Shown here piece by piece: positions 16,396 through 63,351 of a stretch of 64,000 nt of DNA (its first letter is position 1; every line of letters starts with the position of its first letter). The notes beneath the pieces are model-generated. The model worked only from the letters and a program-made list of their open reading frames with translations, was not told where the DNA came from and searched no databases. Source of the stretch: Dehalococcoidia bacterium (GTDB taxonomy: Bacteria; Chloroflexota; Dehalococcoidia; UBA2979); contig OZ253555.1 of the NCBI GenBank assembly GCA_965262725.1, positions 3,040,001-3,104,000 on the forward strand, read 5' to 3'. The translations under genes and the position numbers were made by a program.

Positions 16396-16848
16396 TCACT
16401 CCCCCGGCGCCTCCGCCCCCTGCGCCTCCCCGATCGCCGTCTCGAGAGGAGCTCCGTGATCGACCAGTGTCCGCACCTCCTCCATCGCCTCCAGAAGCGC
16501 CACCTCGAGGCCCGGCGTCTCGGCGATCGGTCGGAAGTAGGAGGCGGGGCCCAGTGCCATCTGATCGGAGGCAACGCGCTCCACGAGTTCGGTCGCGAGT
16601 GGCGGCTCGATGATGCGCGTCCCGGGCGCGAGATCGCGTGCGAGCTGGGCGACTGTCTCGACGCGGAGTGCCAGCGCCGCGCCCACGTGTACGACGAGGC
16701 GCCGCCGGAACTGATCGCCGTGCCGCGCGGTGGGGACGATGACCATCGTCTCGGCGCAGGGATCCTCCCGGTAGCGGGAGGCCGCGCGCTCGACCAGCCG
16801 CTCTGCCTTCGCCGACGCCGCGGGACCGGTGACGAGGGTGGCCGTCAC
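16396..16848 (-). pseudogene. Truncated AddB N-terminal fragment (150 aa)
   Basis: Degenerate P-loop LVTGPAASAK, VIVPTARHGDQFRRRL and FRPIAETPGL resemble AddB N-termini. The GTG start overlaps the DUF429 stop. Confidence 0.6.
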
Positions 16849-18546
16849 GACGCGCCCGCCTTCCGGGGATGCTCCCGGGCGGTTCGGGGCACCCAGATGG
16901 CGGCGGTCTCATCCCCGTAGGGATCGGCCTCCCCACGCCGGTAGCAGAGGGCCGACCACGCGCACACGACGCCGTCGATCGCGTCCTCGTAGCGCTTGAG
17001 CACGCGGAGCGAGGGGATCTCCGCAGCGGCGGGGAGCGCAAGCGCGATCCCCCCCAGGCGCCCGCGGAGGCAACCCAGGATCGAGGCGAGCTCGGCGCGC
17101 AGCCTTCGGATGCGTTCGCGGATGCTGGCGCCGGGGTGGTAGCGCCCGCTTCTCTGCACCTTGTAGGGGAGCCGGTAGTTCGCGCCGGTGAGCGCGAGCA
17201 GGGTAGCGTGTAGGGTCAGGGGCTGGCGCGGTGCGAGCCGTAGGCGGTGGCGCATCAGTTCCAAGCCGGTTTCCCGGTGGTGCCCAACTCCACGGCCATA
17301 GCAGCGTCCGTCTCCAGCCCCTGCCACATCGAACCGGACGTGAGGTTCTCCCTCATCCGGCTCACCGATGCCCTTCACCAGATGGCATGCAGCGCTCCCC
17401 ACAACGTGGGTCGTGCCTTGGCCAGCCGGTACAGCATGTGCGGAGAGCCTCGAACCCTACCAAGTGGTTGCTAGCCCCGAGGGGCACTCACCAGTCCACA
17501 CCCCCAGCAACATGCACGGACAAAGTAGGGGTCCTTCCCATCACCGGCGGTTATGTTGTCCGTCCGGCTCCAGCGGTACTACGACCCCCTCCGCCACCCT
17601 TCCGGCTGGCTGTCCACTTCCCGGCTCTGACCGGTTATAGGACGCCTCGCTCCGACGCCCTCTCACAGGGTGCCGGGCCGGGGAGGGCTTCTCCGGTTCC
17701 CGTCGCTACCTTCCGTACGTTCCACGTCCCATACGCCGGGAGGTTTCTTGAGGCTGCATTCCAGGATCTTCACCTCGTCCATGGCCTTCGCCCTGACCAC
17801 CCGGGCTCGGCTCCTCCTTGGTCCTGTCAATAGACAGGCGAGTCTCACGGCGCGGCAGACTTCGCGTCATGCTGCGGACCGCACGTTTGCTCCCCCTCAT
17901 AGGGCTCTTGACGTCGGGCTTCGACGCAGACCGTTTCCCGTCCACGCCGCCGACCTGCTAACGGGCCTCCTGACAGTTACCCGTGCCGGACTCTCACCGG
18001 CTGGCAGCAACGAGCATGTCTCCGGACCGGTCACGTCATCACGTCACCACCCCTTCGACTTCCGGACGCACGCGGGTAGACCTCGATCAGAGCCGGGGTG
18101 CGGCCGCGGCCGGTGGCCGCGGTCGCGAGCGGGTAGCCGTGGGCGCCGAAGCCGGCGCGAAGCGAATCGGCGAGGGGGCCGGGCCGGACGGCGGAGGGGG
18201 AGTGCACGGAGGCACCGCGGGCACCGAAGGCGCGGGAGACGGCATCATCCGCCGGCCGCCTGGCGGTGACAGGCGAGGTGGCGAGCGGCATATCGACCGC
18301 GACGACCTCGACCGGGCCCGCCCCGAGCCCGCGGGCAGCGGCGAGCAACGCCCCCACATCGGCGCAGCCCGCGTCCGGCCGCACCTCCCAGTCGACGGGG
18401 GTACCCCCGGCGAGGGCGAGGAAGGAGCCGTAGCTCGGCGCGAGCGCGGCGCAACGCCAGCCGCCCTCGCCGTCTGCGACAAGCAGCGAGACGCCGCTCG
18501 GCCCGGTGGCCGTCCACGCTGCGTCGATTCCGAGCACGGCGGGCAT
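16845..18546 (-). CDS. DUF429 (predicted RNase H-fold nuclease), split by a group II intron; exons 18546-18072 and 17209-16845
   Basis: Motifs VLGIDAAW, VAVDMPL, IEVYP|H and EDAIDGVVCA. Exons of 475 + 365 nt give 840 nt in frame (279 aa). Confidence 0.85.
17210..18071 (-). mobile_element. ORF-less group II intron (862 nt)
   Basis: 5' end GTGCG, 3' end ...CCCTAC. Domain V GAGCCGGATGAGGGAGAACCTCACGTCCGGTTC lies at 17363-17331 with the AGC triad. Removal restores codon CAC of EVYPH. Confidence 0.92.
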
Positions 18547-18763
18547 GCGCCTCATCCTAGCGCGGCGCGGTCCGGCGAGGCGCCTGCTGGGCGACACCAC
18601 TGCGGCTGGCACGGTGCAATCGCGGGCAAAGCGATCCAGCGGTGTGCTAGGATGCGTAACAGCTACCGGCACTCTTGTGTGACGCCACGTCGTGCTGCTC
18701 GCGCAATGTCGCGCGTCGCAAAAAAGGAGACAGCACGTCGGAGAGCGTGATCGCGTGGAATCC

Positions 18764-20005
18764 ATGGCCGACACACACGACTTATCGATGAGCGATAACG
18801 GCTCATCGAACGAGGCACTCATCTCGGTCCGGAATCTCTGGAAAGTCTTCGGCAAGAACCCCCTTCGCGCCCTCGCCGGCGAGAACGCCGGGCTGGGGAA
18901 GCAGAAACTCCAAGAGGACCTGGGACTGGTGGTCGGCCTGAGCGACGTGAGCTTCGACGTGAGCCGCGGCGAGACGTTCGTCGTGATGGGGCTCTCCGGG
19001 AGCGGGAAGTCCACTCTCATTCGGTGCCTGATCCGGCTCATCGAGCCCACCGCCGGCGGCGTCGTCGTGGACGGGACCGACATCATGGCGGCTGACCGCG
19101 ACCGCCTGCGGAAGTTCCGGCGGGGGAAGATCGCCATGGTCTTCCAGCAGTACGGGCTCCTGCCGCACCGCACGGTGATGGACAACGCGTCGTGGGGTCT
19201 CGAGGTCCGGGGCATCCCGAAGGAGGAGCGCTACTCCAGGACCCAGGAGATGCTCGACATGGTGGGCCTGGACGGCTGGGAGGCGTCCTACCCCCGGGAG
19301 CTGAGCGGCGGCATGCAGCAGCGGGTGGGGCTGGCCCGCGCTCTCGCCGTGGATCCGGAGATCCTGCTGCTCGACGAGCCCTTTAGCGGGCTCGATCCAC
19401 TCATTCGCAGGCACATGCAGGACGAGTTGATCCGCATCCAGCACGAGCTCAACAAGACCATCGTTTTCATCACGCACGACCTCGCCGAGGCCGTCCGGCT
19501 CGGCGACCGCATCGCGATCATGCGCGACGGATCGGTCGTGCAGATCGGAGAGCCCGAGGACATCGTGCTCCGGCCCGAGGACGAGTACGTCGCCGAGTTC
19601 ACGCAGGACGTCCGCAGGGAGTCGATCCTGACGGCGCGGCACGTGATGGTCGACGCTCCCGCCGTGATTTTTTGCGACGCCGCGCCCGAGGAGGCGCTCG
19701 CGGTGATGGAGGGCACGGGCGCGGAGGCGGCAATGTTGCTGGAGCGCGACCGCACCTACGTCGGATTCGTGACTTCGGAGCAGGCGCGGGCGGCGCTTGA
19801 GGCCGGCGAACGCGTCCTCAGAGATCACGTCGAGCGCGAACCCGGCGACGGTCCGGAGCCCGTCGCCCCCGACGTCACGCTAGAGGAGCTCATCCCGATC
19901 TCGATGGCGAGTGAGCACCCCGTCCCGATCGTGGATCGGTCGGGGAGGCTGCGCGGCGTGGTCGACAGGAGCACTCTCGCCGAGGCGATCTCAACGACCG
20001 ACTAG
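18764..20005 (+). CDS. proV: Glycine betaine/proline ABC transporter ATP-binding subunit with CBS domains
   Basis: GLSGSGKS, LSGGMQQRVGLARAL and DEPFSGLDPLIR; C-terminal CBS pair. Confidence 0.92.
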   Translation: MADTHDLSMSDNGSSNEALISVRNLWKVFGKNPLRALAGENAGLGKQKLQEDLGLVVGLSDVSFDVSRGETFVVMGLSGSGKSTLIRCLIRLIEPTAGGVVVDGTDIMAADRDRLRKFRRGKIAMVFQQYGLLPHRTVMDNASWGLEVRGIPKEERYSRTQEMLDMVGLDGWEASYPRELSGGMQQRVGLARALAVDPEILLLDEPFSGLDPLIRRHMQDELIRIQHELNKTIVFITHDLAEAVRLGDRIAIMRDGSVVQIGEPEDIVLRPEDEYVAEFTQDVRRESILTARHVMVDAPAVIFCDAAPEEALAVMEGTGAEAAMLLERDRTYVGFVTSEQARAALEAGERVLRDHVEREPGDGPEPVAPDVTLEELIPISMASEHPVPIVDRSGRLRGVVDRSTLAEAISTTD

Positions 20006-63261: not shown

Positions 63262-63351
63262 TGGCGGAGGGGGTGGGAGTCGAACCCACGACCCCGAAAC
63301 CGGGGTAAGCGCTTAGCAGGCGCCCGCACTAGGCCACTATGCGACCCCTCC
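63262..63351 (-). tRNA. tRNA-Ser(GCT)
   Basis: GGAGGGG acceptor stem, anticodon loop CT-GCT-AA, long variable arm, GTTCGAC T-loop and encoded CCA. Confidence 0.95.

Follow-up and report, generated by a model that had tools for sequence, protein, structure and literature searches.

A recently landed, probably non-autonomous group II intron in a DUF429 gene is one of many identical copies in a Dehalococcoidia genome

Why is a gene interrupted, within a conserved motif of its protein, by 862 nucleotides (nt) with the hallmarks of a group II intron, and what does the interruption do there? This question is raised by a gene of the DUF429 family on the minus strand of a 64,000-nt stretch of contig OZ253555.1 (Dehalococcoidia bacterium, assembly GCA_965262725.1), hereafter the window, which corresponds to positions 3040001-3104000 of a single-contig 3.67-Mb genome (G000:C1). 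A first-pass annotation made from the letters alone had recognised a group II intron lacking an open reading frame (ORF) and had proposed that it might act as a splicing switch for the DUF429 protein. Our analysis, in which the element (intron B) was compared with the whole genome by blastn, upholds the identification and leads to a different view of the role: B is, with high probability, a structurally intact, non-autonomous group II intron, whose arrival in the DUF429 gene is very recent and came about by ectopic retrohoming (retrotransposition).

The first step was to establish what the element is. Stretch 17210-18071 is a genuine group II intron, and chance is excluded because of its covariance-model score and because the genome contains another 23 copies, all identical to it and ending at precisely the same nucleotides. 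The whole window was scanned with Rfam at gathering threshold, and 17000-18300 was also scanned permissively. The parts that these scans and the genome copies define are as follows.

17210 to 18071, minus strand: intron B, ORF-less group II intron, 862 nt, RNA ends GUGCG...CUAC (Rfam, genome copies).
17867 to 18003, minus strand: conserved core of domain I (RF02003, 102.8 bits).
17331 to 17363, minus strand: domain V, with AGC triad and 2-nt bulge (RF00029 and RF04357 alignments).
17214 to 17325, minus strand: extended domain VI of ~112 nt, with a GAAA-tipped arm and branch-point A at 17216 (Rfam alignment, covariation).

The 5' end GTGCG, the domain V and the AC 3' end all lie where the first-pass annotation had put them. 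In the RNA, the termini GUGCG (18071-18067) and ...CUAC (17213-17210, the last letters of a ...CCCTAC end) agree with the GUGYG and AY consensus and are identical in 24 copies; with a slash for each splice junction, the minus strand reads ...GAG GTC TAC CCG C / GTGCGTCCGG ... CTGACCCTAC / AC GCT ACC.... The domain I core matches RF02003 (group-II-D1D4-4) over the full model, 1-138, with an E-value of 7.8e-22 and a score far above the gathering score of 49. Domain V, GAGCCGGAUGAGG-GAGAA-CCUCACGUCCGGUUC, is canonical in the RF00029, RF04357 and RF04336 alignments, and RF00029 (Intron_gpII, domains V/VI) aligns end to end (model 1-77) at 17365-17210, terminating exactly at the 3' splice site. The branch-point A is bulged between conserved pairs, 7 nt from the 3' end. 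Domain VI usually measures 30-40 nt; the one in B is unusually long and structurally conserved, as RNAalifold on eight related sequences (domain VI of B and its homologs from introns A and C, described below, and from genomes G003 and G008) returned 37 pairs, seven of them with compensatory changes, with the branch A bulged throughout. Domain IV holds no ORF for an intron-encoded protein (IEP), and the longest sense-strand ORF wholly inside the intron is 79 aa. Minimum-free-energy folding of the entire intron mispaired domain V and was not used for the domain map, which is why the limits of domains II-IV are approximate.

The gene into which B is inserted is equally clear, and its two exons lie on either side of the intron.

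18072 to 18546, minus strand: exon 1 of the DUF429 gene, ATG at 18546-18544, 158 codons plus 1 nt (PF04250, homolog alignment).
16845 to 17209, minus strand: exon 2 of the DUF429 gene, 2 nt plus 120 codons plus TGA (PF04250, homolog alignment).

As the first-pass annotation had it, joining 18072 to 17209 gives CCG C/AC GCT and a 279-aa ORF that runs from ATG 18546 (or from an in-frame ATG at 18555, 9 nt upstream) to the stop at 16845-16847, reads ...ALIEVYPHATLL... and has its IEVYPH restored. Both exons match Pfam PF04250 (DUF429), exon 1 at 26.4 bits (cut-off 23; E 6.9e-6; profile 21-78) and exon 2 at 19.1 bits, alone below the cut-off (E 1.1e-3; profile 150-210); this is the only family match of the product, which the first-pass annotation had called a predicted RNase H-fold nuclease, and a search of NCBIfam returned none. 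The homolog comparison covered 17 of 33 related loci. At 16 of the 17, the homolog is an uninterrupted ORF of 261-281 aa, colinear with the joined exons and aligned without a gap over the junction, in which (I/L)E(V/T/C)YPH is nearly invariant; the remaining locus (L053) offers a 141-aa frame only, and the closest homolog among these loci belongs to a metagenome-assembled genome of Chloroflexi. The intron thus lies in sense orientation within a conserved motif, and the reading that a full-length DUF429 protein needs splicing, by the intron itself or with a maturase in trans, is correct. Downstream, an ORF without a Pfam or NCBIfam match (16396-16848, minus strand) starts with a GTG that overlaps the DUF429 stop (GTGA); this overlap suggests translational coupling of the two ORFs, and a polar effect of the intron on the second could follow.

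The second step, a search of the genome for related full-length introns, shows that the element in DUF429 has nothing singular about it. The blastn comparison returned 66 segments, among them 24 full-length copies of B, all 100% identical and with precise ends, at 13 distinct sites; with one copy that lacks the last 5 nt and three that are split by other insertions, the total is 28. Two further families are related to B: A, with 12 copies, is 86% identical to B positions 1-551 and 89% to positions 666-862 and aligns to no other part of B, and C, with three copies, is 79% identical to B. When the flanks of the 24 full-length copies are inspected, 12 prove to lie in A, one in C, and 11 are solo. 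Computational removal of B from an A copy yields a 2,074-nt intron whose domain IV contains an ORF of ~445 aa, the IEP starting with VSAQ. The two halves of this IEP match Pfam RVT_1 and GIIM and TIGR04416 (positions 2-137 and 140-352 of 353), PDB sequence matches place it among group II reverse transcriptases (RTs) and in no finer class, and neither Pfam nor NCBIfam detected an HNH or other endonuclease domain, the tail after GIIM being 38 aa. B is an ORF-deleted derivative of this resident, RT/maturase-encoding A lineage, because it aligns to A on both sides of the ORF gap and keeps a remnant of the IEP start, as follows.

17407 to 17520, minus strand: remnant of domain IV at the ORF deletion, intron positions ~552-665 (limits approximate), keeping GTGAGTGC... 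of the IEP start (alignment to parent A).

The position of B within A and C explains where it normally homes. The cognate site, ...UUCGAGUCGAUACCGC/ACGACC (in longer form ...TGTTTCGAGTCGATACCGC/ACGACCG), lies within the RT-domain codons CFESIPH/DRLM of A and C, and tblastn with the reconstituted IEP found all 15 A/C IEP genes (12 A, 3 C) broken at residue 181/182 and none continuous. The uninterrupted IEPs of the genome (12 long tblastn matches) are at most 40% identical and belong to other intron families. Genome G003, of the same genus, has a related intron with a continuous IEP frame (472 aa from stop to stop) and an unoccupied homing sequence, and genome G018 has a homing-like sequence that is likewise unoccupied. 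One A intron holds two B copies head to tail (549500-551223 in the genome, plus strand). Such a pair is consistent with B homing twice, the second time into an already occupied site whose 5'-exon side, with intron-binding sites (IBS) 2 and 1, was still intact, and it points to a minor part for the +1 exon base.

How would B find a DUF429 gene? In the alignment of A, B and C, two domain I loops differ, and each is complementary to the 5' flank of its own intron, as expected for exon-binding sites (EBS). The candidate pairing elements of the three introns and those at the DUF429 locus are the following.

Intron B: EBS2 GACUCG; EBS1 GUGGU; target CGAGUC...ACCGC/.
Intron A: EBS1 CAAUU (the only one of the two loops resolved); target GGUUG/.
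Intron C: EBS2 GAGUC; EBS1 ACCC; target GACUC...GGGU/.
17839 to 17844, minus strand: EBS2 GACUCG of intron B, intron positions 228-233 (loop sequence tracks the respective target in A, B and C).
17796 to 17800, minus strand: EBS1 GUGGU of intron B, intron positions 272-276 (compare CAAUU against GGUUG/ in A, and ACCC against GGGU/ in C).
18080 to 18085, minus strand: IBS2-like CGAGGU, 5' exon positions -14 to -9, 5 of 6 pairs with EBS2 (homing-site IBS2, CGAGUC).
18072 to 18076, minus strand: IBS1-like CCCGC, 5' exon positions -5 to -1, 4 of 5 pairs with EBS1 (homing-site IBS1, ACCGC).

EBS/IBS pairing amounts to 11/11 at the homing site and 9/11 at the DUF429 site (CGAGGU...CCCGC/), and at least 9/11 pairs are reached at 1.0% of 200,000 random genome positions. 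All 11 solo sites have CGAG or CGGG followed by an IBS1 of 4-5 bp, with the spacer shifted by 1-2 nt in four of them. The DUF429 site, CGAGGUcuaCCCGC/AC, resembles the homing site of B even at the protein level, since IEVYPH and the RT motif FESIPH are interrupted in the same codon phase. The DUF429 site is an ectopic look-alike target, involving no functional choice of site.

The third step concerns the age of the insertion. B itself is absent from the 30 relatives searched, in which the best matches are related introns of 78-84% identity in G003, G008 and G018. DUF429 homologs were found in 4 of the 20 relatives searched with the DUF429 query, namely three of the four same-genus genomes (G001, G002 and G003) and G008, and in all four the frame runs uninterrupted for 281-326 aa through ...ATCGAGGTCTA(C/T)CC(G/T)C/ACG.... 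Contigs of four public runs (X5, X10, X19 and X20) were compared over window positions 16600-18800. X5 and X10, which come from two studies, each contain one contig (4,001 nt and 1,607 nt, respectively) in which 17209 and 18072 are adjacent, precisely the 862 nt being absent and the flanks showing no difference; because contigs in these runs reach 97 kb and 79 kb, the runs are DNA. The junction of B with IEP homing-site sequence is also present in X5. An empty-site DUF429 allele is therefore present as DNA in closely related populations in which the twintron, i.e., the intron within an intron, already occurs. A 23-nt stretch of exon 1 and a 24-nt B-specific stretch had no exact match among JGI metagenome contigs, and sponge metagenome and metatranscriptome labels occur among the runs with matching sequence, the host being apparently sponge associated. 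Since the relatives are uninterrupted and the empty-site allele has identical flanks, the insertion in DUF429 is recent and polymorphic. This also settles how the intact exons should be read: of the two meanings that the first-pass annotation had offered, recent insertion is favoured by the data, and ongoing splicing gains nothing from exon intactness because the insertion is too young for decay.

These findings bear directly on the proposal that the intron is a retained regulatory switch gating the DUF429 protein. Its sense orientation, the precise restoration of a conserved motif and the intact exons are what such a device would display, but B in DUF429 is identical to 23 other copies and we found no locus-specific feature in it, its homing site lies in the RT gene of its parent, and the choice of site is explained by similarity to that homing site. 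Moreover, the gene is uninterrupted in 4/4 relatives that have it, and the empty-site allele with identical flanks in two other metagenomes denotes an insertion polymorphism. We consequently consider the switch very improbable and read the locus as a recent, ectopic landing of a mobile intron.

The remaining solo copies, whose settings were assigned by codon-position GC and Pfam, show what such landings entail. Five of the 11 are in sense orientation inside ORFs, their hosts being an RNase_T/ExoX-like exonuclease (near its 3' end), the RT of another intron, a giant leucine-rich repeat/cadherin protein, an ABC-2 permease and DUF429. One (1302815) is in sense orientation in a 5' untranslated region, where it precedes the start codon of the sole NAD kinase gene by 19 nt. 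We dropped this copy as an essential-gene argument for splicing, since B precedes the GGAGGA ribosome-binding site and translation need not depend on splicing. Two copies (537614-538475 and 1018206-1019067) are antisense inside ORFs, in a phosphotriesterase-family gene (Pfam PTE position 261/298) and in a histidine kinase gene (between HisKA and HATPase_c), respectively; because B is antisense there, splicing cannot rescue these genes. Finally, one copy is antisense and adjoins an IS630-type transposase gene, and two have no gene call. B lands wherever pairing allows, regardless of the consequence for the host. The cumulative GC skew is lowest near 0.40 Mb and peaks near 2.51 Mb, and where the slope is clear 7/7 solo B copies and 8/10 A copies are co-oriented with the leading strand (four solo copies in flat skew are uncounted). 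Introns without an endonuclease (En) are described in a review (PMC4424553) as priming from replication-fork strands, giving such a strand bias, and the bias that we observe is the one expected for En-less introns.

Could the occupied DUF429 site nevertheless be an assembly artefact, in which the assembler misplaced a copy of the repeat into the gene? A high-copy, identical repeat invites such errors, and the two other samples show only the empty site. However, the ends are exact to the nucleotide (GUGCG...CUAC), the 9/11 EBS pairing compares with a 1% chance level, the orientation is the one expected from the direction of replication, and a single 3.67-Mb contig resolves all 28 copies, so that we give an artefact hardly any credence and treat the insertion of B as real.

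If B is a non-autonomous mobile intron, the following chain of events would account for its distribution. The B RNA would be spliced and mobilised in trans by the IEP of A or C, which would itself be translatable only after B has left its own mRNA. Bound by this En-less IEP, the excised B lariat would recognise DNA via pairing of EBS2/EBS1 with IBS2/IBS1, and reverse-splice into the lagging-strand template at replication forks, after which a DNA copy of it would be made. The same RNA, with the same trans-acting maturase, could also splice out of the DUF429 pre-mRNA and restore CCG CAC (P-H), and the predicted ligated junction is ...TACCCGC/ACGCTACC. Accurate splicing of B in vivo is very probable, at any rate in its cognate context, because the RT genes must already have been split while the 12 near-identical A introns carrying B, and the 24 identical copies of B, were spreading. 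In view of the identical RNA, B should splice in DUF429 too, perhaps less efficiently given the 9/11 exon pairs. DUF429 expression is thus probably attenuated rather than destroyed, because the same RNA and maturase can splice there, and no DUF429-specific role of B is implied.

Several observations weigh against this account. First, the RF00029 match to domains V/VI, one of the two scans that the first-pass annotation had suggested, scores 37.5 bits, below the gathering score of 40; the shortfall is due to the large insertion in domain VI. Second, the pairing at DUF429 is imperfect, with one mismatch each in IBS1 and IBS2. Third, the occupied DUF429 site is seen in the assembly only. Fourth, no spliced junction was seen: the RNA-type runs X19 (a sponge metatranscriptome) and X20 each gave one intron-internal contig, 17658-17920 (263 nt) and 17430-17608 (179 nt), respectively, which cover no exon and could stem from any of the 28 B copies or from DNA in the library. 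Fifth, all cognate IEP genes carry B, and the supply of maturase needs prior splicing of B, which is a bootstrap problem.

Part of this evidence would also be at home in a scenario in which the recent insertion is the same and splicing at DUF429 is nil or negligible, the gene being knocked out, with a polar effect on the GTGA-coupled downstream ORF, and the loss tolerated because the gene is dispensable. The 9/11 IBS pairing, the interruption of every cognate maturase gene and the RNA contigs without spliced sequence or exon cover are all in keeping with it, as are the presence of DUF429 in just 4/20 relatives searched and the two antisense copies, which must be knock-outs of the phosphotriesterase-family and histidine kinase genes and show that the host tolerates gene loss caused by B. 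What it fails to accommodate is that the RNA in DUF429 is identical to that of copies that must splice if any A or C IEP is to be made, and that 4 bp of IBS1 and 5/6 of IBS2 evidently sufficed at this very site for reverse-splicing, which is splicing reversed. We therefore think an unspliced DUF429 intron unlikely, while taking it more seriously than either a switch or an artefact, and prefer a recently landed intron that can still be spliced.

The bootstrap problem has a further, more speculative side. Because B sits in the RT domain of all 15 A/C IEP genes, there can be no cognate IEP unless B splices first. We tentatively raise the possibility, which we would not call probable, that B is a hyperparasite that holds every cognate RT gene and gates the IEP on which it depends, in a feedback loop through which one trans-acting maturase would serve ~40 dispersed introns, several of them in host genes such as DUF429.

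Further observations concern the group II introns of this genome at large. Their load is very high, with 59 RF00029 domain V/VI matches at E≤0.001 and 44 RF02003 matches, and no fewer than four families can be told apart, namely A, B, C and D, the last of ~1.9 kb and with an IEP that shares ~38% identity with the one in A. One B copy (733701-736485) has a 1,923-nt D-family intron in its domain V loop (position 722/723), and a solo B copy lies inside a D-family RT gene (1521918-1526026), so that B and D are mutually nested; in the relative G008, A-like introns are likewise split at position 722/723 by the domain V/VI of another intron. Two other B copies, at 1391732-1392941 and 291404-294033, are split by insertions of 1,208 nt and 2,628 nt with B overlaps of 4 nt and 5 nt at their ends, which look like target-site duplications of insertion sequence elements. 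The homing site of A lies in a short repeat, with ~47 nt upstream and ~141 nt downstream of the intron (e.g., 1183388-1183434 and 1186371-1186511). The repeat is also found unoccupied (e.g., around 996160, 1986252 and 2582070), and a ~2-kb repeat adjoins some A copies. Elsewhere in the window, Rfam identifies an 87-nt tRNA with a long extra arm (63265-63351, minus strand, 52.4 bits).

How does this compare with known systems? The nearest parallel is Thermosynechococcus elongatus (Mohr, Ghanem & Lambowitz 2010, PMC2882425), in which 28 introns stem from one ancestor, the ORF-less TeI3 is mobilised in trans, and TeI4(TeI3) twintrons occur. Both bacteria harbour numerous identical copies of an intron that arose from a resident intron by loss of its ORF and that homes into an IEP-encoding intron, producing twintrons, and in both the outer introns sit in another repeated element; splicing and mobilisation in trans by a related IEP were shown there and are presumed for B. 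The differences are fourfold. First, in T. elongatus the first two ATGs flank the inner intron, so that the IEP can be made without inner splicing, and two introns keep continuous ORFs, whereas B is inside the RT domain (TIGR04416 position ~138) of all 15 A/C IEP genes. Second, few introns are described inside genes there, in contrast to five of 11 solo B copies in sense orientation in ORFs, one in a 5' untranslated region and two antisense in ORFs. Third, T. elongatus is a thermophilic cyanobacterium, and B resides in a Chloroflexota-like bacterium of high GC content with links to sponge samples. Fourth, the outer A copies closely match one another, being nearly identical. In Methanosarcina acetivorans, as the same review reports (PMC4424553, on Dai & Zimmerly 2003, RNA 9:14), ORF-less and ORF-containing relatives share one genome, as B does with A and C, and home into the ORFs of related introns; for B, by contrast, the sites include ordinary host genes such as DUF429 as well. 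Trichodesmium (Pfreundt & Hess 2015, PMC4649490), with a group II twintron and introns in conserved genes, resembles our system in its bacterial twintron and in the high intron load of its genome. Clostridium tetani C.te.I1, in the review's account (PMC4424553), is an ORF-less bacterial group II intron in a protein-coding context, as B is, with alternative splicing and no related IEP in its genome, whereas B has abundant related IEP genes and a single 3' splice site. The review (PMC4424553) further describes bacterial ORF-less introns as rare and nearly always found alongside related IEP-encoding introns, a pattern that, so described, B fits exactly. The differences from known systems are of degree: all cognate RT genes are split in the RT domain, B has entered several host genes, some in sense and some in antisense orientation, its domain VI is unusually long and structurally conserved, and the host is a different one. 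Literature searches on group II introns in connection with sponges, Chloroflexi and symbionts, or with DUF429, returned no report of the B/A/C system.

For DUF429 itself the consequence is small, namely a fresh insertion in one strain, with expression now dependent on splicing, and what makes the case interesting is the system across the whole genome, not this one locus. A practical warning for annotation follows, because intron-split genes and RT genes will be called fragments or pseudogenes. At least one B site is polymorphic in natural populations. The system offers a second natural setting, besides Thermosynechococcus and in a different phylum, in which to study how introns are mobilised in trans, how twintrons behave over time and what it costs a genome to have introns in its genes. 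Were B indeed to control the RT genes on which it depends, this bacterium would provide a bacterial, apparently mesophilic model for the passage from selfish retroelements to gene-resident introns with a shared splicing apparatus.

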